Assembly: GCA_051294375.1 (NCBI GenBank)
Contig: CM119263.1
Coordinates: 20,829,661-20,893,660 of the forward strand
Source: Paraspadella gotoi
Lineage: Eukaryota; Animalia; Chaetognatha
Reading direction: 5' to 3'
DNA: 64,000 nt
Under the pieces are notes generated by a model. That model was not told the origin of the DNA. It saw nothing but the letters and a program-made list of their open reading frames with translations, and did not search any database. Below, in pieces: positions 10,272-64,000 of this stretch (the stretch's first letter is position 1; each line of letters begins with the position of its first letter). A program made the position numbers and the translations under genes.

Positions 10272-10315
<44 letters not shown>

Positions 10316-13474: not shown

Positions 13475-16400
13475 ACTCATACACCGCATTTGTTTGTTTT
13501 ATTTACGATGAATGATTCATCGCGTCAATGAATGACTATCATCGCATCAATGAATGACTATCATTTCATGGCTTGATCCTTATGCTTTTAAGATTTTTTG
13601 TATATTGTCTTCATTGGTGACTCACCGTCGGCGTTTCCTTGCGCATTTCATGCAGATTGTCTTTGTTAAGGACGAATCTCCAGTTTCCATCGTCGAGTCG
13701 CATCATCGCCAGACCCGTCAATTCCTTCGACCAGGAAGGCACGTCCGCTAACCCCGTGCCGGTCAACTCCAACACCTGGCCCAAGGATTCAATAAAATAC
13801 AAAAAAATACAAAGTTAAAATACCAATTAAAGCTAAGAACTATTGAAAATATTCTAATTCAAATTATTTAACTATATATATTTGCTTCAGGTATACAAAG
13901 TAGTGCCATAAAAAAAAACAAACTACGACCTTATTTTTTTCTGTACCAGACCTTACCTTGACGTTTTTGAAGGCCCTGAGTTTCTCGGGCGGTTGAACCG
14001 TCTTGATCTTGGAGGACATCATCCCCATCTCTTTAACTTTGGAGGCCTCGACTTCGTCGACGTCGGAGTCGATGATCAAAGTGTTGATGCTGTGACCTTC
14101 CGTCCATCTTTAGAAAGGAGAATGATTGTTATGATTCATTAAACGATTAACTGATTGGTCAATTGATTGATTGATTAATTTACTAATGACATGATGATTC
14201 ATTAACTAATTTAATTCATTAATATTGACTGATCGGTATACAAGCAGTATATGTATATAATTTGCCTTTCCCATGTTTCTTTTTTTCCCCGATCATCCAT
14301 TCGGCAAACTTGATTAACTTCCAACCAATGTCGTTTTCCTATTTTCTCGTAACCCGAGGGTTTCATGAGTTTGCGACCAGCTCCAATTTTGTCAGAACAA
14401 CAACGAAAGCAACAAAAACTACAACGACAACGCAGAAAAGACAAAATCGAACGAAGACAACAACAACAACAACAACTGGCCTACAATCCATCCTCCCTTC
14501 CAGCGTGAGGCGCGGGCTCCGGTTGTTTTCGATCATGTCCTCAATTTGATCCTTGGTCACCACGAAGTCCCACACGTCGGTGGAGCGGCGGACCAGCCCG
14601 CCCGAGAGCGGTTTGCCTACCCGAACCGTCCGACCGGGGTTGAAAGTGACCCAGTTGAGTCCGCGAAACTCGGACGCCCAGTCAGGCAGATCGGACAAGC
14701 CCGTCCACGTCAGGTTGAGGCTCTTTACGTTGGCGAAGAGACGGAGGAGGTCGGGCGGGAGGACGGAGATCACGCGGGAGAATTGGAGGTTAATCTCGTG
14801 AACCTGAAAAAAAGATAAATAAATAAATTGTATTAATCCTTTCTTTTTTTGTTTGTTGAGATTAATTAAAAACGAAAATTTTCGTGGAACAACAATAAAG
14901 TTTTTTATTAACTTTGGACATGTTTCGGCTTACAACTCAAGCCTTCATCAGCATTTGAAATCACAAATAATTTATTTCACAAACATTGAGAGAGAGAGAG
15001 AGAGGGAGAGTTCCAACAAAGAACTTAGTAAAGGAAAGTGGTCAGATGTGAGGACAGGTGAAGATGAGGACAGGGATGAAAAGGAGAGTGAATGTGAAAT
15101 TGGTGAAAAGGGAGAGAGAGACACAGAGAGAGAGAAATAATAGTACACATTAGGCAATGTACAACAAAGATAAATAGTATTATAAACTAGACATAACAAA
15201 GATTGAAATAAATTAAATTAGGCTGTTTGTGCATTTTTGAAATAGTGAAATATTGAAAATGAAATGGAAAAGGATAGTTTTTGAGGGATAGTTAAGATAA
15301 AGAGGTAAGAGAAAAATAAGTAAGGAAAAGAGTTCAAAATGAGCTGGTCCCCCCCCAGCCGGGCAAATGAGGGATATTACTGATGAATTCGAGTGGCACT
15401 GGGCATTTTTCCAGGTGGGTCATTACCAGATCCCAGCCTAACTAACTCCACCACAATACTCTCTCAACCTATGACAGGCCTATGAACCGAAATTCATCAG
15501 TAATATCCCTCATTTGCCCGGCTGGGGGGGGGGAACCAGCTCATTTTGAGCTCTTTTCTTTACTTATTTTTCTCTTACCTCTTTATCTTAACTATCCCTC
15601 ACAAACTATCCTTTTCCATTTCATTTTCAATATTTCACTATTTCAAAAATGCACAAACAGCCTAATTTAATTTATTTCAATCTTTGTTATGTCTAGTTTA
15701 TATTGTAATGATTCTTTCTTTTTCGTTGTGTTTATGAATTTAAGGAATAACAGATTTTTTAAAGTTCAACAACGAATTTTTTATTTCATAGGGACATGTT
15801 TCGCCTCTGTGGTTCAGAGTCTTCATCAGCATCTGACCTAATCAACAAATTTTTCTCTTTAATGTCAGTTTTTAGAGAGAGAGAGAGAAGAGAGAGAGAG
15901 AGAAATAAAGAGAGAGATAAAAGAGGGAGATTCCAACAAAGAATTGAGAAAGGACAGTGGTCAGATGTGAGGACAGGTGAAAGTAAGAGGGGGGGGGCCA
16001 GCTCTTTTTTGAGCTCTTTCTTTATCTTTATATTTCACTAACATCTTCACTTAACTATCCCTAACAACTTATTTTCCCTTTCATATTTCATTCTTAATAG
16101 TTAAACTAAGTTATTAATTGATTGTTACTACTAGATTAACATTAAGTTTGTCCATTTTTACTTTGTTGTACATTACCAAATGTAACTATTTTCTCTGCCT
16201 CTTATTCTTCTCTCTCTCTCCCTCAATTTTTCACCTTTCAAAATTTCAACCAATTTATCTTCTTCCTTGCTCTTACTCACCTGTCCTCACATCTGACCAC
16301 TGTCCTTTCTCAATTCTTGTTGGAATCTCCCTCTTTTTATCTCTCTCTCTATTTCTTTCTCTCCTCTCTCTCTCTCTCTCTCTAAAAACTGACATTAAAG

Positions 16401-16750: not shown

Positions 16751-19700
16751 TCTCAATGTTTGTTGAAAAAATTATTTGTGATTTCAATGCTGATATGAAG
16801 GCTTGAGTGTAAGCCGAAACATGTCCAAAGTTAATAAAAAAAATTTATTGTTCCAAGAAAATTTTCGTTTTTAATTAAGTAAATAAATAAATAAAAAAGA
16901 AATAATAAAAAAAACTTAAATAAATAAAGGAACAAAAAGAGGGCTTATGAAAAAAGGGACAAAAAGGAAAAATTAGCCAAAGAAAGAAAATAAAAAAAAA
17001 ACAAAAAACGTCGATGGCAGAAAAAAAAGGTAAAAGCTAAAAAAAAGAAAAAAGCTAAGGTTAGAAAAAGATGATCGGAATGAAGAATGCAGAGGAGAAA
17101 AGGTTGATGGTGAAATTAAAAAAAAGAAAGAAGTAATGAGGTTTTAACGATTATCTGTCCACGACACGAGTGGAACATGAAACCAAGCGTAAATTTTTTA
17201 GATGCCGACGAAGTATTAATTATTTATAATACGTTCTTTTGTCGTTATTTAAATGAATATGATTTAATCATTATAACTTCCAAATTAATAGATTAATCAA
17301 AGTGAAATGAAATAAGAAAAGGACATCATCAAAGCTAAATTTTATTTTTTTTAATTAGAGATGAAAGGGACACAACTCGCTTTCACCATCTATCCCCTCT
17401 CGAGTTTCACAATCTCACCATCTTCACTTTTCTCCCTCAAAAGATGATCACCGCTTTGTTAGTTCGTGCCGCTAAAGAAGGCAGCCAACGGCCAAAAAGG
17501 CCACCGCCGCAGCCGCCGCAGCCGCCACCGCCGTAGCCGCCACCGCTGCCGCCGCCCAAAAAGACATAACAAAGGCGGAGTGGCGCATAAAAACGTCTGC
17601 CTTGTTGTTTTTACGGACAAATAGCGGAGGAGTCTCGTCACGAAACTGGTCGCGGATCGGTACGATCTTGCTCGAAAAGCATAAAGCGAAAATTGTTACT
17701 ACTGTCGGCGCCGTCGTTTGAAACGTTGACTAAAAGATGGGTCAGTGTCCGCTCTTATAGAGTCAGGTCGGTTCCGTCGGGTGTGTTATTTGGGGTTGTG
17801 GCGGAAAAAAGAGGTTGTGGGGGTAAGGAGAGTGGGATTGCCGTGATGGGTAAGTTTGCGGAGAGCGGAATAAGGTTGAGCCAGAGAGAGAGAGAGAGAG
17901 AGAGAAAAATTGAATGGCAGTAAAAAATTTCGCGGTCGACAGTAAAACGTCCGAGAGGAGGGAGCAGCGGGCAATGTGACCTTTGGCAACGGACCGTGCA
18001 AGATTGCGGACCGGACACTGATGGCGGTGACGTGTGTCTGATTAAATCATGTGTAATATTGTATATTATAATGTAAAAATATCAACATCTGAATAAAAAA
18101 ACTTGACGGTCTGTCTCTCTCTCTCTCTCTCTCTCTGCCATTCCTACATCCTTTCACTAACAAACTTCAAAAAACCTCTTTAAACTCATAAGAAAAAAGA
18201 GGGGACAGCGCCACGACCCATGACCCGACCAGAATATGAGACGGGAAGCCGCTCGACCTATGACCCGAGGTCGGAGATGAGACGAAGGCGGGCGACGCGA
18301 TTACCTTTGATCTGACCTAAAACAAATGACAGGAAATGCAAAAAATCTCAGGCAGACATTTTCGTGACCGAAAAGTTTTTCTCTTTGCGTTGGTCGACGG
18401 ATGACAATTATAATTTATATATGGAGACAAAACTGAAAACATATGAAGATAAAAAAAGTTACAAGCAATTTAGCTCCATAACAACCTTAGTACGAACGCT
18501 GTTCAGTTAGGTCTAAAAAAATGGGAGTTCATCTTCCTCCAACCCAACCCATGGCATAGAGAGATACCCCGGGATCCGATTTTCCGAAACCAATGGCAAC
18601 TGACGGAAAAATCTCTCAGATCGTAATAAGTGTGGAGGTAATCCGAACGATCGGAGAGGCATGTCGACCACTTTTCTCTCAGTAACTTCAGCATTAATTA
18701 AAAAACCAATCATGCCAATCATATCTAATCCACTCTGCTTAGAATATCTTATTCCAAAATAATCAATGTCGTTCCAATTAATGCATCTCGAATAAAACGT
18801 CGTACATTTTTTAAATTTGGCAAAAACCCTAATTCGAAATTTCTTATCGTTACCGATCTTAAATTTTATTTTCTTGAATAAAAAAAAACCAAGAACCTCC
18901 AAAAACTATATAATTTGTCAATTTGTTGCTCTTTTTCTTGCTTTTTCTTTCGAAGAACCGCATATACAAAGTAGTAACCTAAAAATTTATAAATTCATTA
19001 ATATCATGGCATTCAGAAACAACGATCACCAAGGTTTTTAGTTGCGCCACAAGTACTCACTGAGCAACTCTATAAGTCTAGGCGAAAATCTTGTTTAAAA
19101 AATCTTAAAAGTATAGTGATCTCGCCAGACCTTACTATCAAAGAAAATTAATGAAAAAGCACTATAATCTAATTTGCAAGTTAAAAAAATTATGCAAGTT
19201 TAGAAAATTATGCAAGTTTAAAAATTATACAAATTGAAAAAATTATGCAAGTTTAAAATTACATGCAAATTGAAAAAAATTATGCAAGTTAAAAAAAATT
19301 ATGCAAAGTTAAAAAAATTATGTAAGTTGAAAAATTATGCAAGTTTAAAAAATAATGCAAGTTGAAAAAATTATGCAAATTGAAAAAATATATGCAAGTT
19401 AAAAAATTATACAAGTTTAAAAATTATGCAAGTTGAAAAATTATGCAAGTTGAAAAATTATGCAATTTAAAAAAATTATGCAAATTAAAAAAATATGCAA
19501 GTTGAAAAAATTATGCAAGTTAAAAAATTATGCAAGTTGAAAAATTATGCAAGTTAAAAAAATTATACAAGTATTATGCAAGTTGAAAAAATTATGCAAG
19601 TTGAAAAAATATATGCAAGTTGAAAAAATGATGCAAGTTGAAAAAATGATGCAATTTAAGAGGAAAGGTCATTCAGCATAACAATACGTAATCATTGATG

Positions 19701-20969
19701 TGTTAGAGCTAATATGTCGAGAAATACATTATAGTCATCAGTAATCACAAAGAAATAAGTTCTTATTTATTTGTGTTCATTCTGTTTTCAATATTTTTTT
19801 TTTAAATGGGTAAATAACAAAATTGTTAAGTTAAATGGGTAAGCACATTTTTTAAAGATTTGTTTTTTCAATCTGGTTGTTAAAAAATTCTAGTAAGAAG
19901 TTAAAACACGGTATGGGATAGTTTTAGAGGGAGAATTGTTGGTTTTTCCAGTCATGAACAAAATCTTCAGTTAAAATGATGGTAAAGAAATTCGAGCTAC
20001 AATGAATCTACACTGAATTTGAAGAGTTGCAGCCAAAACGACTGCAATAATATTGAATTAAAAATTTGATTAGCAATCTTAAAAACATTTGTAAAAATGT
20101 AATAGAGAGACATTTTGATAAACGCGTTCCAGTTAGAAAGAATTCAGGGTTAAAGTTTAAAAACGTTTGATTTTCAAGGATACAAGTTGAAATTTAAAAA
20201 ATGTCTCTCTATTACATTTTTCTAATTCAGTAATAAAGAATTCATAAAAATATCAGATGGATTGGCCTTTTCGTTTGACCTGCAACTCTTCAGATAGGTT
20301 TCTTTTTATTTTATATTATAATTAAAACCGATATAAAATGGGGTAGAATGTGAAAGTGAATACATTTCGGAATCGCCAGGAGCTCAGCTTTTCTGAATTT
20401 GTACTCCATTTTAGCCTATTTTGAAGTTGAATTGAATGACCTTTTTCTTAAAAAATTATGCAAATTAAAAAATTATGCAATGTTAAAAAAATTATACAAG
20501 TTGAAAAAAATTATGCAAGTTGAAAAATTATGCAAGTTGAACAAATTATACAATTTAAAAAATTATGCAAATTAAAAAAATTATGCAAGTTGAAAAAATT
20601 ATGCAAGATGAAAAAATTATATAAGTTTGAAAAAATTATACAAATTTAAAAAATTATGCAAGTTAAAAAAAGTATGTAAGTTGAAAAAAGTATGCAGGTT
20701 GGCAATATAAAAAGTGTGATGCGACGGACGACAACAATAACGACGACGACGACGACGACGACTACGTCACAAATAAGAATCAGAAGCAGCAGCGACGGAG
20801 AAAAAGAGAGAGAGAGAGCGACATATAATTAAAGAGAGAGAGAGAAGCTGAACTCGTCCGGTTGCCTCGGAGGTAGCGCGAGCTCCCCCCAATCTAAAGA
20901 CTCGGGTTCGCGGCCCTGCTAATTCACAAAAGAAAAGCAAAAAAAAAACTGAATAAAAAATTGTTTTGT

Positions 20970-21020
<51 letters not shown>

Positions 21021-24000
21021 AGAGTGAGAAAGAGAGAGAGAGAGAGTTTTCCCACCAACGAGACGCATTATTAGGTCACTCTCGTTTATTTTCGGTTTTC
21101 CGTGCCTCGCAACGGCGGCTGAAATTGGTTCATGTTGATTTATCACGTAACGTTTCCGTTGCCATTAGGTCATATTCCTCGACATTGTTTACATTGTTTA
21201 CATTGTTTTAACCACGAAATCTAGGTCAAGTAAGTTATTGTATTTTGGGATTTTGTATTGAGATAAAAATAATAAATGGCGATAAAAAAGTTTTAAAAGG
21301 AAAAAAAATAATCAGAATTTTTAAAAAATGAACGATCCACGCAAGAGATTCATACAGAGAGAGACAGACACACACAGAGAGAGAGACAGAGAGAGACAGA
21401 GAGAGAAAAGGCACACAGAGAAGACCAGATGAGAGAGGACACACAGAGGAGAGACCGCAAAACAAATTAATTTTTAGAACCGTGATAGAAATAAAATTGT
21501 GTTAGTATATGTGATTAATAACATAAACAATAACTTCTATTTTTTTTTAAATTGAAATAAGAGCTTAGAAGCGCTATAGAAAAAGAAGCCAGTGACTTTT
21601 TTTCTATATTTCTATATCGATAGAGTTGTGGAATTGACGGGGAATATTGTAAATCACAAGTTTTCGCTTAATCGGACCTCACATTGTGGAGAAATCTTAG
21701 GGAAACCCATCAAAATTCACCCCTTTTTTTTCAACATTCTCGCCTTTTTATAGATTTTCGCCGATTCTGACTTCCTCTTACAAACTTATAAATTCCGCTA
21801 GTTAATTTTTTTCTTAAAAAAGAAGGCGAAGGGAATCCATACTTTCTGTTATTTTATGATTTCTGGGTAAAAAAATATAGATGAATTACATTATTATTGG
21901 GATATTAAGAAAGTAAAATGTCTTGTGAAGCCTGTGAGAGTTAAATAATTAAAAGATTCGCCTATTTTTATTATGAAAAATGACATTAAGTGAAGTAGTT
22001 GAACCGTCTTCCAGCGTCATTTCACTAAACATTCACTGTTCTCTAACAAAAATAATGTTACTTTTTGCTGGTGGAAAAGAAAGATAAATAGTTAGGCTGT
22101 GATGGGGTGAATAATATTTTGTAGAATTTTGTGAAGCATGCTTGTAATATCAGGCAAGCAAAGTATTTAGTGAAAAAAAAAATTATATTTCCTTTATCCA
22201 AAAAACTTTAAAGTTTTACTATAGTACAATTTAGCCTTTTTTCTTTCAGAATCACTAAAAAGAATTTAATTTTCATTTTATTTTATGGGTTTCATTAGTT
22301 TTTAAAATTCATTATAATTTTGACTTAGTTTGACACTCACCCTGTAAAGAGGTTTCAGCAAAAAATAATTCTAGATATTGTAACTTGTATGTGCCCAATG
22401 ATTATGGCTTCATTTTGTACTATTGCCATCCCTGCTATCTTTGTTTCCTTCAAGAGATATCAGGAAAACATCAGTTTTTTTTCGTCTCAACCTTCCTTTT
22501 AATTCCTTATTAAATAAAAATTTTCATGTTGTCAAACCAGACCATTGGACTTTACAATGCGTTGGTTTACTATGAAGAGTTTGGTCAATATGAAAAAGAA
22601 AAATTTGGCAAGCTGCTTGAGACAAAGAGGCCTTTCTAATCTCAAATTCGAAGTTAATATTTTATAATGTTAACATACCCTAGCNNNNNNNNNNNNNNNN
22701 NNNNNNNNNNNNNNNNNNNNNNNNNNNNNNNNNNNNNNNNNNNNNNNNNNNNNNNNNNNNNNNNNNNNNNNNNNNNNNNNNNNNTTTCTTTTTTTCCTCT
22801 ACTTTTGTCTTCGAGTCTTCGAGTTAAGGACGGAGTTGAAACGGACCACGAAGGCGACAGGAAACCTTACCCTCGTTACGATCTTGACCATACCCAATTC
22901 ATTCGTCGAATCGGGTGATTAAATGCTGCTTACTGCTCAACGATCATAAATTGCGATTTATGATGCATCGAAGCGGTTGCCTAACAAATTAATTTACTAC
23001 AAATTAATGTAGTGCATTGTACAACAAAAAATTATGTATTACAAGCCTGTTTGAGAATAAAAAAAATTGAATTTTCCCCCTTAGAAAACTGAGTAAATTT
23101 CGGTTCCATTGTTACATTATTTTCTTGAGAGTCAGATTGTATATAAAATAATTATATAACAATGTAGTCTCAAAGGTTAAATAAATAAATAAATAAATAT
23201 ATATTATATATAAATTGAAGAGACAGTAATTATCGTTATATGTTAGTGACAGAACCGTTCAATATAAGCAGTCCCTGAGCTTCGGATCAGGCTGTAACAC
23301 CGAGTTACAGGCGGGTTAAGCGCCCCGTCCCCCTTAACTGCAAGGCGGCCACCAGGCTAGAACCTCTGCTGCATTTTCTAATAAAGAATTGATATAATTT
23401 TTGCTACTTTTAATAAAAAAAATTATGTCCATTTTTGTCCATTTTGACTTTTGTCTTGAGATTTGAACGTCAAGATCATTGAAGAAAATTTTTTTACTCT
23501 GGATTTTGGGTACTTCTTATCTTCTTTACCACTGAGTCGGTTAATTTGCCATTGGTAATCCATTGTTTGCCTATGAATTCATTTTTAAATTGACTAGTCA
23601 AAAATTTACATTTTTACATTTCATTACAATTTGTTCTACGAAAATACTTCAAAATATCCACAAATCTAATAAAATATTTCATTTCAACGGTGCTTCTGGT
23701 ACCTAAAAAATTAGGGCAAAAAATTTAATAGTTTTGCAGCAATTAAATTTTTAAGTCAACTTTTAATTTGTAAAGGATTTGTGAGGTGCCTTTTATTTGA
23801 ACTAAAACTGGGTTTTTGACTGATTTTATAATTTTAATAGATGAGAAATATAGTAAGGTTAAAAAAAAACCGCATTCTTTTAATGTAATGGAAAGCATCA
23901 GTAATTTTTTTCCTCTCAATCGACAGGTTTTTGCGGAAAAAATTTTCGCAAAAATCTCGATTTTTTAAATCTGCTAGGCAACCAAACTTTGAATAAAATC

Positions 24001-25759
24001 ATACGATACTTAATAATTTTTTCTTACAATACATTTTAAATATTTTTATACATCCAGTATGATATAAATGGAAAAAATGAATGAAAATGAGAAAAAGATA
24101 AGAGAAGAGAGAGCATGGGGAAAAAAAGAGAGAAAGAGTGGAAAGAAATTAATATAGAGAAGGGGGAGAACGAAAACAATTAAGAGAAAAAAAAAGATAA
24201 GAAAGAGGGAAGAAAGGGAATCAGAGAGGGAGAGAAAAGCAGAGATAGAGAGGAAGAGAAATAAAGGTAAAGGAAGAAAAGAAGGGATGACACAGAAAAA
24301 TATGAGGACAGAAAAGTCGGAGATAGGGAGAGAAAGAGAGAAAGAGAGAAAAAGAGAGGGACAGTGAGAAGGTTCAAGAGAGAAAAAAATAGTGAAAAAA
24401 ATGGAAAAAAGTTTTAAAATATAGCGAGCCGTTTTTGTTTTTTTTTGCCTAAGCTGTAGTATATCTAAAAAACGCGATAGATCTGACGAGCAATTTAATC
24501 TTTAAAAGTTGTCCTTACCATGAAAAATCGTTTTAGTTTCATCTTAATTAGGGTAGATACCTTAATTAGAATGATTAAGCCTTAATTTCTTTTACCTTAA
24601 TTTAAGGTAAAAGAAATTATGTCTTACCATATTTTGAAAGCATAGAAATTCACCCAGTGAGTTCGATGTTATAAGGAGAAAATAACTATAGCCAACCGTT
24701 TTTTAAAATAAAGCATGTTTTATATTAATCAGTGGAAACAAAAGAAATAATAGCTATATAAGCCGAATATAAATCACTGACATATATGCTCCCTCTATTT
24801 CCAGAAGACAACACTGACTTCCCCTTCCCAAAATGAGTTATTAGATATAATGATAAGTAAAAAATTTTTAAGAAAGCGATACATTGTAGTGGTAGTATTT
24901 CATACCCCACTACTCGTCCGAGAATCCGCAGCACCTATGCCATAGGCTATGGCGCCGGAGGTAGCACGAGCTCCTCCCAACCCAAAGGACTCGGGTTCGC
25001 GCCCTGCTGATTCACACAAGTAAAAGCGGGACGGGGCGTCTAACCCACCTGTAGTGTCGGACTACAGTCCGATCCGAAGTTCGGGACTTTGTGTGCAACG
25101 GACGGTAAACTGCTCGCGGCATCGTTTTCCACAACATATATATATAAATATAGATTAAAAAGTAAATCCTTCATAAAACATAAAAATAAAAAATAGTGAA
25201 ACAAGTAATTTGAAAATTTTCATATAAATAAATAAATTAATTAATTAATTAATTAATTTTTTTCCTCGAGATGTAATCCGATAAACCAAACCATAGACCG
25301 TGACTCATTCATTCACTCGTTTAACCCGGAAGGCAGTCGATCGAAGAAAAGAGGTTAAGCCTCGCGGGTGAAGCGGCTGGGGTCGGGGAGCTAAACCCGC
25401 CCTTTGACATCTTGTCGCCCCTCGCTCTCTCTCTCCCTTCTCTCTCCAGATAGAGAAGGATTCATTTTCTCTCGTAATAACTGACCGCGGCTTTCCAACT
25501 TGCACAGATAATTTCTCGATTTAACGGTTATTTCTTATATTAAGGGAGAAATTTTAGTTAAGACGAACATTGAAGTATACTTTTTTCCCTGACGATACTC
25601 CCGTTTCCTTCTCTCTCATCTTCTCACTCTCCATCTCACTATCAATATCTTACCTTTTTTCCTCTCCGCTCACGAAGGTCGATAAATTCTGATCTCACCT
25701 CCGCGCGATGAAAAAATTCTTCACTTTACAAGAACAAAATTTGCATTTCTTCCCCCCCC

Positions 25760-38380: not shown

Positions 38381-39034
38381 TGAAGAGACAGTAATTATTG
38401 ATATGTGTTAATGACAGAACGTTCATTAAGCAGTCCCTGAGCTTCGGATCAGGCTGTAACACCATGTTACAGGCGGGTTAAGCGCCCCGTCCCTCTTAAC
38501 TGCCAGACGACCACCGGCAGAACCCCGGACCTTTGGGTTGGGAGGCGAATGACTTGCCTCCGGCACCAATGGCCGCTGATGAATGGTTGGTGGGTTTTAG
38601 TCGCACCATACATCCCCCCCGCCCGTAGGAAGATGTCTGTTGCGTCTCTTCAGTGAATTGTTGTTGTTGTGGAAAGTGCGTCACCAAGTTGAGGCATGTC
38701 GCCTGATGTGTTGTGTGGCGGAAAGTGCATCGCCAGGTGAGGCATGTCGCCTGAAAGTGATTGTTATTGCTGTGTGTCGAAGTCGGGCTCACCAATGAAG
38801 AGACAGTAATTATTGATATGTGTTAAACTGTTAATGACAGAACCGTTCAATATAAGCAGTCCCTGAGCTTCGGATTCAGGCTGTAACCCATGTTACAGGC
38901 GTGTTAAGCGCCCCGTCCTTCTTAACTGCCAGACGACCACCGGGCTAGAACACCGGACCTTTGGGTTGGGAGGCGAATGACTTGCCTCCGGCACCAATGG
39001 CGCTGATGAACGGTGGTGGGTTTAGTCCACCATA
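38381..39034 (-). mobile_element. Miniature LTR element family A, full length
   Basis: LTRs 38381-38610 and 38796-39034, PBS TGGTGAGCCCGAC (38782-38794), PPT ~38613-38622, TSD GTTA. Twister motifs at ~38429-38503 and ~38857-38929. Confidence 0.92.
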
Positions 39035-44930: not shown

Positions 44931-47374
44931 AAATATATTATAATTAAAAAATAAATAAAAAAAGCAACAAAATGGTTTATTAGATTTCCCTTCAGCGCAA
45001 AGGCTCTCGAAGCACCTCTCTTGGCAAGAGAGTTCCCTAATAGGGAAAGATACATACTTTAAACAAAATTGAAACCAATAAATACTAAATTATAAGCTTG
45101 CATATGTATCAGAGCAGAAATTGTGTTTTTACAATGGCTTTTTGAAATAGATTTCAGTTGGTGAACTTTATATATCAAACAATATCGCAGTTCTTGAGCC
45201 CTGTTTACTGCAAAATATTATTACCTGAGCTTTAATTTTGTATCATAACTAATCAAATATGAAAAAGATATTTTTATGAATAATTGCTAGCTAATATTGA
45301 CTTTTGATTAGAACCATAATAGTCCAAGCTTACTCCACTTTTGATGATCCGCATTTTCTGTTTTATGTGCATGTAAAGAGCCAGAAAAAGCACTCGTCCA
45401 TTAAGTTCTTCAACACAATAAAGTTTCGGGATAAGTACTGATTCATTTAGCGCTTCTATCAGTTAAAGTTTATCGAAGTTTTTGTTAACCAGCAAAATTT
45501 ATAGTATCGAGATTAAGAGCAAAAAAAGCATCAAGAGATAAGGAAGTGAAGAGAGAGTGAGTGGAGTGTGCGAGGTGAGAGAAGAAACTCCATGCAGATA
45601 GTCCGACTTGATATTCAAGAATATTGCTCTACATCCGTACCACGTTGCCTACATCGGTGCTTAACTCTGATCACAAATCTACCCGAGTGAGAGTGAGGGT
45701 GCTGCTTAGTACTGATTGGGTGAGCGTCGGTGGGGTGGGTGTGAGTGTGCGTGCCGTGTGGATGAGCGCGCGAGTGTGAGCGAGGAGCTCCGAAGTTGAG
45801 CGAGAGGTTGGCCGCGAGTGAGTGTGTAATGGGTACCCAGGGATATTGACAAATATATATGATTGAAAAATGCATATTTTTCTCAATTATCATTTAAATG
45901 GAGCTTCAGAATGAATCTTTTCAAAGGGAACTGCTGAATATAAAAGCAATTTTCTTTTGTTCCAACATAGAAATAATCATCTTGAGAGCCAAAACCTTAA
46001 GACCAAAATTTTGTTATAAATAAATATGTGGGGGGGGGGGTGGGGATGACCGGTGAGCGGTGGTGAGAGAGTGTGTGGTGTTCGAGGGCAGGGAGGCTGG
46101 AAGCGGTGGAGAGGGTGCGCCGGTGTGAGAGTACAGGAGCGTGGTGGTAAGCAGGGGATGAAGGAGGCTAGGTCGAAGTGATGTGAGAGCTGGTGCCGAG
46201 AGTGTGGTGTGGCGGTAGTGTTTGGTGGTGGTGGTGTGGTGTGGTTTATTAATTTTTAAGTTGCCCACTTTAATCAAGCAAGTGGGGTTTTGGCTGATAC
46301 TAAAGATTACAGACACTTGAGTCCTTTGAAATTTATAATAACTATTAAAAAATGAATCTGAAGATATTTTATGAACACTTGGTAACTATATATTGTTATC
46401 TTTTGTTATGAAAAAATTAGGCCCATAAATACGACTTGCTTCTGATAAATCAGCATCTGTTTTCTATGCAAAAGCAGAGTTAGAAAAGCTCGTCTTCAAG
46501 TTCTGGCAGGAGACAGAAAGTGGGTGGTGTGTTCATTTTCAACTATTCAAGTAGAGGTTATTGAAGTTTTTTTATCTCAGCTAATTGATATATCAAAGAT
46601 TTAGCAACAAAAGATAAAAGTCATCAACGACAATAAGGTATCCTAAGAAGTTTTATTTGCTTTGAAAGAAACTCATGCAGATAAGCCGACTTTGAATCCA
46701 TGATATGTTGCTTACGTCCAATACCCACGTTTCATACACTGGTTCTGAAATAAAAGCAATTTTCTTTTCAACATAAGAATATTCATCTTTGACACCAAAC
46801 TTTAACCAAGATTTGTAATAAAAATATTTCATGACCATCATTTATAGATTTCTCAGACAAGCTCAAGCAGCTCTCTTAAGAAGGAGTTCCATGAAGGGAA
46901 GATACATACTGCTAACAAATGAACTACTCAATTATAAGCTTCATTTTCACGTGTATATTTTTTCTTGCCATACGTTGCTTGGAAATTTTTTGAGTTAGCC
47001 ACTTAATGCAAGCAAGTGGAGTTTTAGCCATTTATACTAATAGAATAAGACCACTTGAGTGAACAGTATTTATAATAATATTAAAAGAATGAGTGAAGAT
47101 ATTTATATGAATAATGTAACTAATATTTTTAGCTTTTGATTATGTGAAAAATTAGTCCAATATTACGCCGCTCTCATAATCATCTCTCTCTTTTGCCTGA
47201 ACCGGCTTCGCCGGTCATGGCTCGATAAAAATCCTTGTGGATGATTTGGTGTCCGACCAGAAAAAAATATGATCTTAATGGTATTTTCATTTTTTCAATA
47301 TTACTTGAAATAAAAATATGAATAATATTATCATAATATTTTCATAACATTGTCACTCACTTCTTGTTATCACT

Positions 47375-48010
47375 ATGGCTTATCTTAATAATATACAAAA
47401 ATGCAACAAAAGTAGGTGCGGCACTTCTCCCTTTATTCAAGAATGTAATTTTTTTCAATCTACCCAAACAAATATAACATATTTTCCAATATTAAATGGC
47501 TCAAATACTTTAAATTGTAATAAAGAAAATATAATATATTTAATATCATGTCATATCTGTTCAATGCAATATATAGGAGAAACAAAGAATAGTCTAAGAA
47601 TAAGGTTTAATGGTCATAAACATTCTATAAGGTCAGGAAAAAGTTCTCAAATTATCCATCAACATTTTAACAATGAAAATCATGGTCTAGAAAACTTAAG
47701 AATTTTACCAATAGAAAAAATTAGACCAATGAATAATAAAATAAATCAAAATAAATTAAAACTAGAAAGAAAAGCACATTGGGAAAAAAAATTTAAATCT
47801 CTTTACCCTTTGGATTAAATGTAAGATTAAAAGGTATGGGAGATTTTGTACCATTTCAACAAAACTATCAAATATATGGAAACACAAGGAGAAAAAAACG
47901 ATCACACGGAAAAAGAAAACCAAAAAATAAAAGACCAGGGCGTATTTTTACTTTAACTTATTTAAAAAAAATATATAATAATATAAAAAATAAAGAATAT
48001 CACATGCATT
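47375..48010 (+). pseudogene. 5' fragment of a Naiad/Chlamys-type Penelope-like ORF with N-terminal GIY-YIG endonuclease
   Basis: KCNKSRC...CNKENIIYLISCHICSMQYIGETKNSLRIRFNGH...HF...PIE...LYP(LGLN), then basic RRKKRSHGKRK. Frameshift near 47810, truncated by the insertion at 48015. Confidence 0.8.
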
Positions 48011-49025: not shown

Positions 49026-49616
49026 TCTGAGTTTAGTTTAGGCGAAATCGCCATAACTAGAACGCTAGATGTAGTTCAGTGCGAAATCGCTAAATCGCGA
49101 CTAAGCCTTGACGCCATGATTTTTCAACATTATATCCATCCTTCCTCATTACGAAATCAAGAGTAAGCTACAAATTTCATTCTGAACAATTTTTTCTAGG
49201 GAAAATAAAACATATTAAACGAGAATCTTGCTTAAAAAAAAATTCAACATTTTTCTAATAGAGATTTCCGTTAAAATCTGACTACCCAAATTGCAAACGC
49301 GATTGCCAGAAATTCGGGTAAAAAACAGTTGTAAAAACGCACGAATTTTCAAACCTCGTTTTTACTATAGAAATGAACGGGAAATTTTGCTTTTCAAAAA
49401 TTTCAATTGGGGTTATGGTATGTTAACATTATAAATATAACTATATAATTATGAGATTTGGAAAGCCTCTTGTCTCAAGAGCTTGTCAAATTTTTCTTTT
49501 TATTATTGACCGAACTCTTCATAACCAACGTGGAAAATTCAATTGCTCTGGTTTCACAACATGAAATTTTTATTTATTTTAATTTAAATTGCGACGATCC
49601 TTTTGCTCAATTTTCT

Positions 49617-51665: not shown

Positions 51666-52903
51666 ATTAGTGGAGGTGGTCGAGATAAAAAATGGCGAAC
51701 AAAATGAGATGAATCGATTTATTGAAATCAGAAAACGAATGGAATCGAATTGGCTCATTGTACAAATGGCATTCATTTTTATACGGCGAGAGAGAGAAAA
51801 ATTTGGTTTACAATTTGTAAAGTAAACAATTCTAAAAATACTTCCAAATAAGGTAACGTTTTGGACGGCGTTTAAACAGAGGGAGCAAAATATTTTTAGC
51901 GGGCATTGGATTTTTAAAGAATTCGGCCGGCGATTTTATTTACTTTCTTACTAATAATACATAATCAGGATTCCACTATATTAAAACCTGAGTTTTAGTT
52001 CATTCAAATAGCGATGTCGCCGGCGATTCACACACGAGTCGAGGTGTGATTCTAGTTGGTTGGCGACTCTGCCATGGCGATGTCGCCAGGGCCTGGCGAT
52101 GTCGCAGTGAATAAAAGTAGCGAATATATGAAAGGCGAGAGTTAGAGGAGAGGCTCACGACTGATGTTGAGACACGGAGATAACGCATCACCCACGGACT
52201 CCTCCCCCAACCCTAACCCTAAACCAGGCCTCCTGTTACTCCATGCCTCTCCCCAAACCCTAACCCGGGCAACCCTAACCTAAATGACTTTGACACGTCA
52301 ACCACGGGCCCCTCCCCAACCCTAACCCTAAACCGGGCTCCTGTCAACTCTGTGCCTCTCTCCCAACCCTAACCTAAACCGGCCAGGCCCCCCCTACATC
52401 TCCGTGTCTCAACCCTAATGTCCTCGCCAGTACCTTCACTAACCTAACCTAACGCGGGCCTCCTGTTCATCAACAACACCCTCCTGCCCTAACCTTAAAA
52501 TTGACATTATATTAACCTAAAATGATATTAACTCGACCTAACCTAAACTACTCAACCCTAACCCTAAACTATTCAACCCTAACCCTAACTACTACCAACT
52601 CAACCTTAACCCAAACCCTAACCAACTCAACCCTAACCCTAACCCTAACCCTATCTGAGTTTAGTTTAGGCGAAATCGCCATATACTAGAACGCTAGATG
52701 TATTCAGTGCGAAATCGCTAAATCGCGACTAAGCCTTGACGCCATGATTTTTCAACATTATATCCATCCTTCCTCATTACGAAATCAAGAGTAAGCTACA
52801 AATTTCATTCTGACATTTTTTCTAGGAAATAAAACATATTAAACGAGAATCTTGCTTAAAAAAATTCAACATTTTTCTAATAGAGATTCCGTTAAATTGA
52901 TAC

Positions 52904-53137
52904 TGTGGCAGCAAGACTTAAAGCTGCTCACTGTGTCCGTCCTCAGCCTCGTCTCAATGGTGGCAGCTAATCATCTCATCCACCGTGCGTCCGGGCATCC
53001 CGGGATCCCGTTCTGGCTTAAAGTGACGTGCCGTATAACATGCCAGTGACAGGAGGCGGTCACTGAGGTCCGCAGCCCCTAGCCAGTTGGTGAGATTACC
53101 CCGCCCCGGGTATACAGGCTATCCTCCGTTGCCGATA
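52904..53137 (+). mobile_element. Solo LTR family D-like insertion with degenerate twister motif (~53004-53087)
   Basis: Absent from the paralogous site at ~49280 (CTGACTACCC), flanked by (c)TAC/CTAC. Contains CTGGC...TAA-CAT-GC-CAGTGAC...GTCACTG-AGG-TCCGCAGC-CCC-TA-GCCAG. Confidence 0.75.
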
Positions 53138-53472
53138 CTACCCAAATTGCAAACGCGATTGCCAGAAATTCGGGTAAAAAACAGTTGTAAAAACGCACGA
53201 ATTTCAACCTCGTTTTACTATAGAAATTAACGGGAATTTTGCTTTTCAAAAATTTCAATTGGGGTTATGGTATGTTAACATTATAAAATATAACTATATA
53301 ATTATGAGATTTGAAGCCTCTTGTCTCAAGAGCTTGTCAAATTTTTCTTTTTATTATTGACCGAACTCTTCATAACCAACGTGGAAAATTCAATTGCTCT
53401 GGTTTCACAACATGAAATTTTTATTTATTTTAATTTAAATTGCGACGATCCTTTTGCTCAATTTTCTGCTCT

Positions 53473-54902: not shown

Positions 54903-55481
54903 GACATTCATAATAAATATTTTGTGCAAAAGAGTAGTGTGAGAGAGAGAGAGAGAGAGAGAGGAGGGTAAAGAGTTTTCCAACAAAGTGGTGAGACAGA
55001 ATAGTGGTCAGATGATTGAGACAGGTTGAAGTGAGGAAGATTGAGTGAGTTGTGAAAGAAGTGAAATTGTTAAAGAGAGAGAGATGAGAGAGAGAGAGAG
55101 AGAGAACAAAAAACAACAGGATAAATAAAATAATAAGATACATTTTTGCAATGTACAACAAAGATAAGAGATGTTTGAAAAACTAAATTGAGAAATTTTA
55201 ACATTTAACTAGTGAATAAATTAAGTAATTGCTCAAGCGGATAGTTGAAGTGAAAATGAATCTGAAAGAAAGTAGTTTTTAGTTTTCAGTTGATAATTGA
55301 GATTAAGAAAGTAACGTTCAAGGGAAAGAAAGAGCTCAAAGTGAGCTGCCCCCCTTGTTGCAAATGAGGACAAGACGATGTGACGGGTCATTGGCGTGTC
55401 AGTGGCTGAGAGGAGAGTATGAGAACTGATGAATGCCGGATTGGGAAGCGATCCTTGCGGAAAGATCCACCAGGGCTACTC

Positions 55482-57125
55482 TTATGTTCTTTGGCCTGAT
55501 ACGCCTGCCGGATGCCCTCTTCTCGCCTGCTGACGAGGTGGGCGTGTCCTTTGCCACTTTTTGTGACAGGAGTGACGGACCTCCTCTCCCTCCTCCTGAA
55601 GCCGTCGCTTTGGGCGACGCTCAGTCCGCAGAGAGAGGGACTGAGTTGCTGCATCTAGAGGAGAGGCATTGTTTGCCATTGCCTGCGGCAGGGTCTCCGC
55701 TGTCTCTGAGTGGAGACTAGGGGAGTCATTGTGCGGCGTGGTGGCGTGCGGGGCCTCACCACGCTTTTGATTAAGCGAATCATAGCTTGGAGGGAGATCG
55801 AAACGTCCTCCATCACGGTTCAAAGAGTCGAGGGCTTTGATGTAAATTGCCTCTCTAATACCTCTTGAGAACAGTTTCGGGTCATGGGACAGCACGAGAC
55901 AGTCTGATTCCCTGAACAGATGGCCTGTGTCTGCTGAATGTTCGCAATTGCGGACAAATAGTGACCTCGGGCGATCACGGTAAGGTTTTTTGTGTTGTTG
56001 GAATCGATCTGTCAGAGACTTTCCTGCTCTCCCACAGTATGCTGGCTGCACAGGATTGGTTGCCCACCCCTGCACAGGCCGCCCAGTAGACGGCTCTGAT
56101 GTTTTCCGGTCTGGGGATTTTATCTTTCGGTTTCACCATTGCTCACGTAGGAGCCGCGGGCCGTCACTGAAGTGGAGATCCCCTGCTTTGCCAGCACCCG
56201 CCAAAGCTTCAGTGATCCCCCTGGTGGTAGGGGAGGGACAAGTGACCCACGTTCCTTGGCGCTCTCTGCTTATCTTCCACTTGCGCGCTGTGGTGGGCGC
56301 GGTCGCTCTCAGCAGCAAGCTCCGTTCTGCCTCCTGGGGGTGGAGGTAGAACCTGCGTCAGCGGTTACTGGACAGCCCCTGGTTGGCCACTGTCCTCAGC
56401 AGGCGCGGCCGATATAGCCTTCTCGAAGCCACAATGGGTAGCCATTGATCGCCAGGCTCTTTTGATGTGCTCAAGCTCGGCGGCCTGAAGCTCGGGGGTC
56501 GACGGAATCAGTGCAGCTCTCCTGGTAAGGATCTGACCGTGGCGAGCTTGTGAGACAAGGGAGCATGTGAGATGAAGGGAATGTATTGGTCCGTGTGGGT
56601 CGGTTTGCGATATACTGAGAATTCCAATGAGCCGCCCTTTGCGTTGAATCAACACATCGAGCATTGGAATTGACCCATTCACCTCCCTCTCACATCGTCC
56701 ACTTGATCGCACATGGATGCTGTTCAGGTGGTTTAGTAGATCCTCAATGAGCTTTGCGCACAGCCAGAATGGTATCGTCTGCTTTCCGATACCAGAAGAG
56801 GACTGACTCTGCCCCATGCAACAATCGAAAAGAGGCCAAAGCTTCCACCTCATAGTCCTCCATATAAAAATCGCCAGAGGACTTGACGTTGATTTGCCCA
56901 TCCCTAAGCCACCAGGCTGGGCATAATATTGTCCATCGACCTGAAGTACGCCGTTCCAGGTCCAGCCGCAGCAATGCCATGATATCATCCAATTGGATTG
57001 GCGTAGCTCGTGCAATGACCGGTCTTCCCTCGAGCGGCGCTCTGCGGAAGCTAACGCCAAGTCTTGGGGAATGTTCGTAAACTGCTTTGTAAATCGCACG
57101 AGACCAAGGAGGACGTTTCGATCTC
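55482..57125 (-). pseudogene. Penelope-like reverse transcriptase plus C-terminal GIY-YIG endonuclease, multiply frameshifted
   Basis: [59 protein letters not shown] (RT). AYCG...DRFQQH, EHSADTGH, RGIREAIYIK...LNRDGG (EN). Confidence 0.9.
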
Positions 57126-58021
57126 CTCCAATGCTATGATTCGTTATCAAAAGCGTGGTGGAGGCCCGCCGCCACCACGCTCCGCGACAATGACTCCCCT
57201 ATCTCCACTCAACGAGACAGGCGAGACCTTGCGCAGGCAATGGCAAACGATGCTCTCCCTCTAATGCAGCAACTCAGTCCCTCCCTCTGCGGACTGAGCG
57301 TCGGCCCAAAGCGACGGCTTCAGGAGGAGGGAGAGGAGTCCGTCACTCCTGTCACAAAAGTGGCAAGAACGGACAACCGCCCACCTCGTCAGCAGGCGAG
57401 AAGAGGCAGCCGGCAGGCGTATCAGGCCAAAGAGACATAAGAGTAGCCCTGGGGATCTTTCCGCAAGGATCGCTTCCCAATCCGGCATTCACAGATTCGG
57501 TCATACTCTCCTCTCAGCCACTGAGCACGCCAATGACCCGTCATCATCGTCCTGTCCTTCATTTGCATAAAACAAGGGGGCCAGCTCACTTTGAGCTCTT
57601 TCTTTCCTTGAATTTCACTTTCTTAATCTCTTAATTATCAACTAAAACTAAAAACTACTTTCTTTCATATTTCATTTTCACTTAACTATCCCTTAGCTAA
57701 TTACTTATTTATTCACTAGTTAAATGTTAAAATTTCTCCAATGTTATTTTTCAAACTCCTTTATCTTTGTTGTACATTGCAAAAATGTATCTTTATTATT
57801 TATTTATCTCTGTTGTTTTTTGTTTCTCTCTCTCCTCTCTCTCTCTCTCTTTAACAAGTTTCACTTCTTTTCACAACTCACTCAATCTGTCCTCACCTTC
57901 AACCTGTCCTCACATCTGACCACTATTCTGTCTCACCACTTTGTTGGAAAAACTTTTACCCTCTCTCTCTCTCTCTCTCTCTCTCACACTCTTCTTTTGC
58001 ACAAAATTTATTATTGAATGT

Positions 58022-59380: not shown

Positions 59381-60329
59381 TGTGAGAATTGTTTAATAGT
59401 AAGAATGAAATATGAAATATAAAATGGAAGAATAAGTTATGAGGGATAGCTAAGGTAAGTTTTTTAGAGAAAAAAAAGATGAGAAAGAGCTCAAAATGAC
59501 CAAAACTGGTTCTCAAGAGGCATTAGAGAGGCGATTTACATCAAAGCCCTCGAACCCTCTTTGAACTGTGATGGAGGACGATTCGAACTCCCTCCAAGCT
59601 ATGATTCGCTAATCAAAACTGTGGTGGAGCACCCTACGCCACCTCAGCCGCATGGTGATTCCCCTGTCCCCACTCAACGGGTCAGGCAGAGACCTCCTAG
59701 CAGGCAATGGACATCTGATGCCTCTCCTGAGCCTGCAGCAACTTGGCACGACTCTTCTCGTGCTGAGCGCCGCCCAAAACGACAGGCCAGAACAGACAAC
59801 TGCCCGCCTCATCATCAGGTGAGAAGAGGGCTCTCGGCAGGCCTATCAGGCCAGAGAGATATACGAGTGGCACTTGGCATTTTTCCAGCCGGATCTTTGC
59901 CAGACCTGAACCAATCCCACTCCACCACAATATCCTCTCAGCCCATTACAGGCCAATGAACCGATCACATCGGTAATGTCCTTCATTTGCCCGGCCAGGG
60001 GGGGCCAGCTCATTTTGAGCTCTTTCTCATCTTATTTTTCTCTAAAAAACTTACCTTAGCTATCCCTCACAACTTATTCTTCCATTTCATATTTCATATT
60101 TCATTCTTACTATTAAACAATTCTCACAAACATTTATTTATTACTAACTTATGTTACTTTAGTTTTTTCACTTCTATTCACTGTTGTACATTGCCAAATG
60201 TATTGATCTCTCTCTCTCTCTCTCTCTCTTTCTTTTTCACCAATCTCAAATTCACTCACTCTCCTTCCCTTCCCTCACTTTCTCCTGTCCTAACATCTGA
60301 CCACTGTCCTTTACTCAATTTCTTTGTTG

Positions 60330-61665: not shown

Positions 61666-61949
61666 TGTGGATAAGGTGCTAAGTGGGCTGAGGATGAAGA
61701 TATCTAACTTCTTTAACCCCCTCTAGCAGCTATGGCACGGGTCCTGGGCTTGGAACCAGGCTTGAGGGTTTTCCACGCCCCCAAGGCGGCTTACAGCCGT
61801 CCTCACACTTCCAGCAGGGTAGGTACCGGGTTGGGATTGAACCCGGTACTGAGTGGTCATGAGCTGACGGCTTTACTCAATGAGCCACCGGGTCACGACT
61901 GAAGGTGTCATGCTTAGAAGCGGGGTGAACTTTGCTATGCCCGACTACA
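61666..61949 (-). mobile_element. Solo LTR, family C (tRNA-like head plus twister motif)
   Basis: Minus strand TGTAGT...CCACA, TSD TTAC, and the empty site is visible in the opposite pLTR arm. A-box TGGCTCATTGAG and B-box GGTTCAATCCC (~61830-61893). Confidence 0.88.
61741..61812 (-). ncRNA. Twister-ribozyme motif (type P5), family C
   Basis: GTGT-GAGGA-CGGCTG-TAA-GCC-GC-[CTTGGGGG/CCCTCAAG]-CCTGG-TTCCAAGC-CCAGG. T1 covaries to TCC/GGA. P5 is weak. Confidence 0.72.
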
Positions 61950-62404
61950 TTACTACTTATTTAACTTTTGTTATTAATTCAAAATCTCAGCTTATTTTTA
62001 AGTTTTTCCAAATTTATCTTTGTTGTACATTGTCAAATGTAATTATTTCTCTCTCTTTCACTTTTCACCATTTCAAAATTATCTTCTTCTTCTCTGTTCT
62101 TACTTTCACCTGTCCTCTCATCTGGCCACTGTCCTTTACTCAGTCCTTTGTTTGAAACTCTCCCTCAATCTCTCTCACTCACTCTCCGAGAAAATTACTG
62201 GACCAAATTCATTTTTTCTTAAATATTTTGCTTATATTTATTTTTAAAAATAAATAAAACAATATATTTTCTTTTATTGTTTTAATTTCATTATCAACTA
62301 TATTTTTAATTTGTTATTACTATATTTTAAGCCCAAAATTACTTTTCCCAGATGGCATGAAATATGAGTATTATGGTGGACTAAAACCCACCAACCGTTC
62401 ATCA

Positions 62405-62477
62405 GCGGCGCATTGGTGCCGGAGGCAAGTCATTCGTCTCCCAACCAAAGGTCCGGGGTTGTAGCCCTGTGGTCGTC
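62405..62477 (+). promoter_or_regulatory. tRNA-derived Pol III (A/B box) head within the LTR
   Basis: TGGTGCCGGAGG (A-box-like), CGCCTCCCA (resembles a Gly-CCC anticodon loop; cleaner in the second LTR), GGTT(C/G)TAGCCC (B-box-like), closing GCGGCCA/TGGCCGC in some copies. Confidence 0.6.
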
Positions 62478-62479
62478 TG

Positions 62480-62553
62480 GCAGTTAAGAGGGACGGGGCG
62501 CTTAACCCGCCTGTAACATGGTGTTACAGCCTGATCCGAAGCTCAGGGACTGC
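62480..62553 (+). ncRNA. Twister-ribozyme motif (type P5), family A 5' LTR
   Basis: GCAGTT-AA-GAGG-GACGG-GGCGCT-TAA-CCC-GC-[CTGTAACA/TGTTACAG]-CCTGA-TCCGAAGC-TCAGG-GACTGC. Predicted cut between 62503 and 62504. Confidence 0.8.
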
Positions 62554-62901
62554 TTATATTGAACGGTTCTATCACTAACTCATAACAATAATTACTGTCT
62601 CTTCATTGGTGAGCCCGACTTCCGAACACAACAGCACAAACAACACTTTCAGGCGACATGCCTCAACCTGGCGATGCACTTTCCGCCCACAACACATCAG
62701 GCGACATGCCTCAACTTGGTGACGCACTTTCCACCAACAACAACAATTCACTGAAGAGACGCAACAGACATCTTCCTACGGGAGGGGGGGATGTATGGTG
62801 GACTAAAACCCACCAACCGTTCATCAGCGGCCATTGGTGCCGGAGGCAAGTCATTCGCCTCCCAACCCAAAGGTCCAGGGTTGTAGCCCTGTGGTCGTCT
62901 G

Positions 62902-62975
62902 GCAGTTAAGAGGGACGGGGCGCTTAACCCGCCTGTAACATGGTGTTACAGCCTGATCCGAAGCTCAGGGACTGT
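62902..62975 (+). ncRNA. Twister-ribozyme motif (type P5), family A 3' LTR
   Basis: Identical core. Predicted cut between 62925 and 62926. Confidence 0.8.
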
Positions 62976-63963
62976 CTTATATTGAAGGCGGGCGGTTCTA
63001 TCACTAACTCATAACAATAATTACTTTCTCTTCAGTATCAGCATTAAGTATGTAAACTACTTGGCTACTACCAGACCCAGAACCAATAAAATTATTAAAG
63101 AAGATTAATTCATTGATAAATAAAAAAATTAACAGATAATAAAAAAATTAGTAATAAAAATAAGGATGCATACATTTAAAGAGATTTGCATTGTAACATA
63201 TTCAGTTGTATCCTGATATGATTGGCAAGATTAAAACCTCGATCAAAGATGATGTAAAAATGTACACAAGACTCAAGTCGCCCAAAACCGTTTTGTATCT
63301 TATTTAGAATGTCAAAGCTCATTAGAATTCTTTGCAGAATATGATAGGGATTACTCAATACCTCCCTAGCTGATTATATTAAAAAATTCGAGCTCGATAT
63401 GAAAAGTAAGTATCCTATGGATATGATTTTCAAATAAAAAAATCTAAAAAAAATTTCTTTCTATTTTTTTATCATTAATAAAAATTTTAACTCAAAGTAA
63501 AAAAATGATATTCTTGAACATACTGAAAAATGTTTATCTTAATTAAAAACAACTATATAATAGACTCCAACCCCAATCACCAAACACCAAATACCAAACA
63601 CCAAACATATTCTTAGCTATTAATTTTTTTTTTATAAAATTATTTTATCTTACATTAAAAATATTTGGGCTAAAACTAATTGAATTTCAATGTTGAGCAA
63701 ATTAAAGTTTTATATTTGATAAAGATTTTGTTTAAAAATTAATACCGAAAAATATCCTATTTTGTTATTTTTTTAATTTTATATGAAAATTTACAAAATT
63801 ACTTGTTTCACTATCTTATATTTTTATATTTTATGAATGTTTTACTATTTAAACTATATTATTTAATTATATACTTTTTTAAAATATTATTTGATTATTA
63901 TATCTAATAACTCATTTTTAGAGGGGGAGGTCAGTATCGTCTTCTGGAAATAAAGGAAGCATC

Positions 63964-64000
63964 TGAAGAGACAGTAATTATTGATAAGTGTTAATGACAG
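63964..64000 (-). mobile_element. End of another family A LTR, running off the window
   Basis: TGAAGAGACAGTAATTATTG...TTAATGACAG. Confidence 0.8.

Follow-up and report, generated by a model that had tools for sequence, protein, structure and literature searches.

Plant LTR retrozymes are non-coding elements that carry a type III hammerhead ribozyme in each of two short LTRs, together with a primer site and a polypurine tract, and they are further marked by a 4-bp target duplication, many solo LTRs and a cut-to-cut unit without terminal repeat (PMC4918200). Their RNAs, reported to be more than 70% paired, circularise and are then reverse-transcribed as circles (PMC4918200). A 2026 preprint (10.64898/2026.07.22.740005) places LTR retrozymes mainly in plants. 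In the dimeric type I hammerheads of Penelope-like elements, a newt satellite and a viroid, a short self-complementary element replaces the helix by the cut site (PMC4209133, PMC6765202), and the resulting double hammerhead with its small palindromic loop cuts multimers and spares monomeric circles (PMC4209133, PMC6765202, PMC7761336). Among twisters, whose permutations include type P5 (PMC5408937, PMC10085705), altered-P1 forms tied to a retrotransposon are represented by the T-variants of Perere-3, an RTE LINE of Schistosoma mansoni (PMC8501958). These are type-P1 ribozymes located at the 5' end of a non-LTR element and their P1 is drawn from the flank. Finally, a short palindrome drives a strand swap between two ribozymes in the hatchet, even if it is neither needed for catalysis nor strictly conserved (PMC7357161).

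The window analysed here is a whole stretch of 64,000 nucleotides from the chaetognath Paraspadella gotoi. The family A elements that it contains share the anatomy listed above with the plant LTR retrozymes, but they carry a twister fold instead of the hammerhead, in a smaller predicted unit of 422 nt and in an animal host; their predicted circle is moderately structured, with 52% of its bases paired (z = -2.5 over 60 shuffles), less than in the retrozyme RNAs. Like the dimeric hammerheads, they have a short self-complementary element by the predicted cut site in repeated copies, and these direct-repeat copies would, as proposed below, share it as one helix so that multimers are cut and monomeric circles spared. 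The ribozyme class is however another one, and the pseudo-LTRs of the hammerhead elements are replaced by true LTRs with a primer site and a polypurine tract. Unlike the Perere-3 twisters, those described here are type-P5 and LTR-internal, with a fixed palindromic P1 which, unlike the hatchet palindrome, adjoins the cut site. Neither a natural dimeric twister nor a twister in true LTRs was found in the literature searched, most subscription papers lying outside it. The main text of two RNA-dimer reviews does not include the twister, and one review (PMC5408937) mentions twister dimers only as crystal artefacts.

Family A elements and other LTRs

Family A shows, in three elements, the anatomy of an LTR retrozyme: two LTRs, a primer site, a polypurine tract, a 4-bp target duplication and no coding sequence (Table 1). 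No open reading frame of at least 100 aa lies inside the 62372-63034 element, no tRNA gene was found in the 64-kb window, and the unit between the two predicted cuts, 422 nt long, is devoid of terminal repeat. When the contigs of run X1 were compared with this element, 17,645 of them aligned to it and at least 172 left its 3' end into unrelated flanks. The empty allele, seen as a joint skipping 667 bases at the insertion, was present in three of the four public runs. The contig pile-up, the varied flanks and the empty site together indicate a high-copy family with a polymorphic insertion.

Four further families and a relic core were also located. They are seen only as solo LTRs or remnants, paired copies being confined to family A. 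Families A and B are related (71% identity over 142 nt), as are D and E (87% over 39 nt), while C and the relic are alike by eye only. Fragments of family A/B LTRs without a twister core lie at 5504-5598, 20868-20938 and 63963-64000, and the family E insertion is absent from a paralogous stretch near 49280 (49200-49350 compared with 52880-53200).

Table 1. Coordinates of the LTR elements, twister folds and linkers in the window, numbered from its first letter.
Feature	Position	Strand	Details
Family A element, non-coding two-LTR retroelement (TRIM-like)	62372-63034	+	663 bp; 4-bp target duplication GTAT
5' LTR of this element	62372-62605	+	234 bp, TA...CA; ends seen as loose ends of 172 and 108 contigs, run X1
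Twister fold copy 1, 5' LTR	62479-62554	+	GA+CGG 62492-62496; P4/L4 TCCGAAGC; predicted cut 62503^62504
Family A linker, P1 replacement	62497-62502	+	GGCGCT between GACGG and TAA; pairs G.U, G-C, C-G
Primer-binding-site-like sequence	62607-62619	+	starts TGG, one base past the 5' LTR; from sequence
Polypurine tract	62780-62791	+	followed by TG, then the 3' LTR; from sequence
3' LTR	62794-63034	+	241 bp, 95% identical to the 5' LTR
Twister fold copy 2, 3' LTR	62901-62976	+	linker 62919-62924; predicted cut 62925^62926
Second full family A element	38381-39034	-	two twister cores; target duplication TAAC
Third full family A element	3557-4236	-	two twister cores; target duplication TGCT
5'-truncated family A LTR	23216-23364	-	one twister core
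Family A cores, GA	62492, 62914	+
Family A cores, GA	38917, 38491, 23329, 4137, 3670	-
Family B solo LTR	24885-25136	+	inferred ends, no clean duplication
Family B linker	25035-25040	+	GGCGTC; core GA 25030
Family C solo LTR	61666-61949	-	TG...CA; duplication GTAA
Family C linker	61799-61794	-	CGGCTG; core GA 61804
Family D twister core, decayed LTR remnant	10508-10592	+
Family D linker	10529-10536	+	TCCTAGGG; core GA 10524
Family E solo LTR	52904-53137	+	3' end approximate; core GA 53025; linker GCCGTA
Relic core	8385-8403	+	GAGGA-CGGCCG-GAA, no L4
Relic linker	8390-8395	+	CGGCCG; core starting 8385

Type-P5 twister folds and their conservation

The strands of these folds follow the order P5a, P2', GA+T1, linker, UAA, P2, GC, P3, P4/L4 and P5b, which is that of the type-P5 permutation. 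By their anatomy the folds are type-P5-ordered twisters with predicted cleavage at U^A, and the cut sites of Table 1 were placed according to the twister U^A rule (PMC8501958). Strand order, GA+T1, UAA, P2, P3, P4, an eight-base L4 and both pseudoknots are shared with the described type-P5 twisters (RF02684, clan CL00120), from which the present folds differ by their location in eukaryotic LTRs, by unusual T1/T2 letters and by scores below the Rfam threshold. In the whole window, no Rfam match reached the gathering score, and for family A none was obtained even at E up to 10, with chance matches only around it. The P4/L4 of family C gave a partial match to RF02684 of 16.8 bits, covering model positions 38-58 only, for a gathering threshold of 37.6 bits. 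No hammerhead family of Rfam was matched in the window. The folds are considered twister-like by anatomy and outside RF02684 by threshold. A relaxed descriptor applied to the window returned mostly A/T-rich noise among the matches listed.

The two pseudoknots covary between families. T1 is formed by CGG/CCG in A, B and sibling contigs of E, by GGA/TCC in C and by CCG/CGG in D, all of them complementary, and T2 is formed by GC/GC, or by AC/GT in B, where both sides are altered. The sequences of P3 and P4 also vary among families with retention of pairing. P2 has 2-4 bp, partly mismatched in the window copies of D and E, and P4 has 3-5 bp; the MAFFT cross-family alignment, which misplaces D and E, was left out of the pair counts. 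The conserved GA, which provides the general-base G, and the UAA cleavage loop are found in A to E and fail in the relic, that is, they are kept in 5/6 families. Within family A, 9 of 378 aligned bases differ in the core and 88 of 804 in the LTR flanks, over six pairwise comparisons to the 62492 copy that are not independent; changes are about four times rarer in the core than in the remaining LTR.

Self-complementary linkers in the place of P1

A sequence-only reading of this DNA had reported that P1 is replaced in every family by a short palindrome, and had proposed from this that the twisters work as dimers. The five linkers that it quoted, those of A, B, C, D and the relic, are all present and all pair with themselves from end to end when G.U pairs are allowed. 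The GANGG...TAA frame in which they had been placed holds for A and B only. The 5' motif consists of GA and three pseudoknot bases, GACGG in A and B, but GAGGA in C and the relic and GACCG in D; these three letters are the T1 strand and vary in step with the L4 loop. The relic has GAA instead of TAA and lacks a recognisable L4. Descriptor searches on both strands of the window found GGCGCT in all seven family A cores. In the six copies other than 62492, none of the 36 aligned linker bases differs (pairwise comparisons to that copy, not independent), and no linker variant occurs among the best 40 of 197 variant rows for this family.

Family E, which that reading had omitted, limits the claim of a palindrome in every family, the linker of its window copy being not self-complementary. 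In sibling contigs of E, T1 is nevertheless intact and complementary, P2 has 4 bp, and the linker is 8 nt long, with an A.C mismatch at its outermost position and three pairs (G.U, C-G, C-G) among the six letters inside it; this suggests that the window copy is degraded or misread. The sibling sequence comes from loose contig ends, 31 in run X1, 27 in X2 and 19 in X5, with an agreement of about 0.75, and from one single contig in run X9; minor E groups of 2-4 contigs each differ, and their linkers are not self-complementary. The related D and E linkers differ at both sides of two pairs, yet pairing is kept. Linker length is even in all families (6 or 8 nt) and the linkers are G/C-rich. Their innermost pair, which is the one that a hairpin cannot form, is of the Watson-Crick type in 6/6 families: C-G in A, B and the E siblings, G-C in C and the relic, U-A in D.

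Phage twisters were used as controls. Two scans of viral contigs, with linkers of 4-30 nt allowed and the canonical P4/L4 letters fixed, yielded 18 loci, two of which (L031 and L032) were dropped as they have no P2. The other 16 hold 17 P5-type twisters with 14 distinct P1s. In all 17, P1 begins directly after GA+3 and ends directly before TAA, the very register occupied by the linkers. In contrast to the 6-8-nt self-complementary linkers, these P1s are hairpins of 16-30 nt with energies of -8.4 to -24.5 kcal/mol; none of the 17 has a self-complementary loop and many have UNCG/GNRA-like loops, whereas no stable tetraloop of this type exists in the six window linkers. One phage contig (L042) contains two P5-type twisters (151-203 and 504-553), separated by about 350 nt and both equipped with a complete P1 hairpin. 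Since the P4/L4 letters were fixed, short-linker twisters of other sequence could escape these scans. A family-A-type pattern with a 4-12-nt linker gave 27 loci in viral contigs, none of which passes the structure filter, and a similar pattern gave 13 loci in metagenome contigs, none with a twister fold on inspection. As these scans produced chance matches only, the sample of short linkers stays small.

The probability that a random 6-mer is self-complementary with G.U allowed is 0.053, or 0.10 at the linkers' own composition, and that of an 8-mer is 0.020, or 0.046. With the independent lineages taken as about three (A/B, C/relic and D/E) and products obtained by simple multiplication, whole-linker symmetry has a chance probability of 6e-5 to 5e-4. 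A shrunken hairpin would also retain outer pairs, which leaves the inner four letters as the only discriminating ones; for these alone the values are 0.14-0.215 each and 0.003-0.01 over the three lineages. Shuffling each linker's own letters gives P = 0.018, and the strictest null, in which the inner four letters are shuffled, gives P = 0.15, which is not significant. These figures apply to a feature chosen after the fact and to lineages that may share an ancestor. As read from the letters, the changes from A to B and from C to the relic are transitions opposite G, through which pairing would survive by default, and the U-A centre of D may be a decayed C-G, as D decays elsewhere.

A proposed double twister sharing P1

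The linkers had been described as too short for a stable hairpin, and the energies bear this out: the best hairpin of each linker lies at +2.7 to +5.6 kcal/mol, so that no intramolecular P1 stem is found, whereas the duplex formed with a second copy of the same linker reaches -6.3 to -10.7 kcal/mol. The strand-swapped fold of the 5' and 3' LTRs of family A is nested, and two monomers are less favourable by about 6 kcal/mol. Considering the helices alone, it scores -43.7 kcal/mol, as compared with -37.3 for two monomers without P1 and -29.5 when each has a 1-bp P1, and when the rest of the element is also folded the values are -202.1 (swapped) and -196.6 kcal/mol (monomers). The unconstrained optimum of the whole element, calculated without modelling of pseudoknots, is -226.0 kcal/mol and corresponds to neither twister state; the linker-linker pairing probability is 0.0 in this calculation and the swapped fold lies about 24 kcal/mol above the optimum.

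The two LTR twisters are likely to come together as a strand-swapped double ribozyme with one P1 in common, which would cut faster than a single copy, a reading to which a probability of roughly 60% is given. Each copy would contribute its 5' half (P5a, P2' and GA+T1) to pairing with the other copy's 3' half (UAA, P2, P3, P4 and P5b), and linker 1 would pair with linker 2, forming a single helix of 6-8 bp that serves as P1 for two active sites placed back to back. Besides the pairing of P1, this model requires that the two copies exchange strands in P2 and P5, a requirement absent from the sequence-only reading. In a transcript spanning both LTRs, the swapped fold would be intramolecular and nested, and the two U^A cuts would release the 422-nt unit without terminal repeat, whose ends, held by P2 and P5, might be ligated into a circle. 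This circle is proposed to be stable because just one weak monomeric site would remain in it and, as has been suggested for plant retrozymes, it would be copied by the reverse transcriptase of a helper LTR-retrotransposon that starts at the primer site. For monomers and solo LTRs, slower cutting is more probable than none.

The hammerhead precedent invoked by the sequence-only reading, dimer cleavage with a palindromic stem III, is as quoted (PMC4209133), and its proposal that the twisters of the two LTRs pair through P1 agrees with the exact P1 register, the stable duplex, the Watson-Crick innermost pair and the more favourable swapped fold. Its step from a short linker to a dimer does not follow, and the dimer is not forced. 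Hammerheads are impeded by a weak helix III, whereas twisters can dispense with P1: a P1-less twister cleaves at almost the wild-type rate according to PMC5408937, while such cleavage is called inefficient in PMC8501958, and in the PMC11662667 screen, which covered natural type-P1 twisters, cleavage was unaffected by the length, the stability or defects of P1. A graded preference for pairs is likelier than a strict need for them, given that twisters cleave without P1 and that the hatchet palindrome is dispensable for catalysis. The further proposal of the sequence-only reading, efficient processing of full two-LTR transcripts only and quiet solo LTRs, is conjectural.

The main alternative makes each LTR twister act alone, the linker being either a mere tether or a shrunken P1 in which one or two pairs close a loop of four bases, and its symmetry a leftover of the collapsed hairpin or a small boost. 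A 6-nt linker could indeed close as one pair with a four-base loop, and a monomer is therefore plausible. The dispensability of P1 and its tolerance of defects (PMC5408937, PMC11662667), the paired arms that remain by default after the collapse of a hairpin, the strictest shuffle and the hatchet, which dimerises through a palindrome not needed by its catalysis (PMC7357161), all speak for such an autonomous twister. It is nonetheless considered unlikely, as the stable tetraloops of the phage controls are missing from the linkers, the innermost pair is maintained as Watson-Crick in three forms across the six families, and the E siblings have lost the outermost pair that a mini-hairpin needs for its closure while keeping the inner palindrome. 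A plain tether would have no need of the G/C-rich composition, the even length or the invariance in family A that the linkers show.

Pairing could also take place in trans, between two genome copies, with the palindrome acting as a dimer-initiation signal for packaging in the particle of a helper and cutting being either triggered by dimerisation or independent of it. Six-base palindromes do initiate the dimerisation of retroviral genomes (PMC7357161), the linker duplexes, at -6 to -11 kcal/mol, are stable enough for this role, and cis and trans partners cannot be separated by sequence alone. The palindrome occupies the exact P1 register in every family, however, instead of lying in a free stem-loop, and a partner in cis lies on the same molecule at a distance of about 420 nt, in a fold that is nested, which makes the trans reading improbable. 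Even less credit is given to the idea that the folds are inactive here, through competing helices or decay, with an incidental linker symmetry. It can appeal to the Rfam scores, none of which reaches the gathering score in the window or, for family A, E up to 10, and to the trapping of the T1 strand and linker in other local helices, which is frequent in local folds. The covariation of both pseudoknots, the catalytic G and UAA kept in 5/6 families and a core about four times more conserved than other LTR sequence make this inactivity very hard to sustain.

A stricter form of the double twister can be considered, in which the dimer would be obligate and would count LTRs: only two-LTR or otherwise paired transcripts would be cut, the monomeric circle and thousands of solo LTRs would stay intact, and this animal LTR clade would hold the first dimeric twister found in nature as well as the first LTR retrozyme of an animal. 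This version is held only tentatively and is somewhat doubtful. If true, the double-hammerhead trick of cutting multimers and sparing circles would have arisen twice, the second time in a ribozyme class unrelated to the first, and the presence of a fast ribozyme in thousands of genomic LTRs without harm to host transcripts would be explained. The range of LTR retrozymes would widen to include animals and twisters besides plants and hammerheads, the P5 permutation would gain a biological role, and a class of twisters missed by the Rfam models would be indicated. The double twister would also be a compact RNA switch gated by two copies. Should monomers cleave as well, true LTRs that bear twisters are still without counterpart in the literature searched.

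Competing helices were seen near several cores. In A and B, a GCCC-containing stretch located 23-30 nt upstream (62464-62469 and 25000-25006) is able to bind both the linker's first half and the T1 strand, with a pairing probability of 0.6-0.97 in three copies. It is a possible off-switch, which may be weak since most A copies are mismatched there (62468 T>G in the majority). Small local hairpins that join the P2/T2 strand to the T1 strand or the linker compete with the monomer fold in A and C (62494-62509, +, and 61799-61785, -).

No LTR-retrotransposon helper was identified in a Pfam search of eight open reading frames of the window, the sole match being GIY-YIG (E 0.0005). Decayed Penelope-like coding remnants, marked by RT-like motifs seen by eye and by the GIY-YIG match, lie at 55480-57640, 59480-59960 and 47348-47818, and several of them are flanked by long inverted repeats with CT/AG microsatellite arms. 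Such remnants, like the telomere-like repeats mentioned below, are in keeping with a repeat-rich animal genome. The open frames 14363-14929 (-) and 10217-10687 (-) are leucine-rich-repeat-like by eye and have no Pfam match; the family D twister lies within the second of them, on the opposite strand. A degenerate CCCTAA telomere-like array is present at 52200-52660, and a 71-bp tandem array and arrays of 18-bp units occur at 2698-3123, 2139-2592 and 19129-20728.
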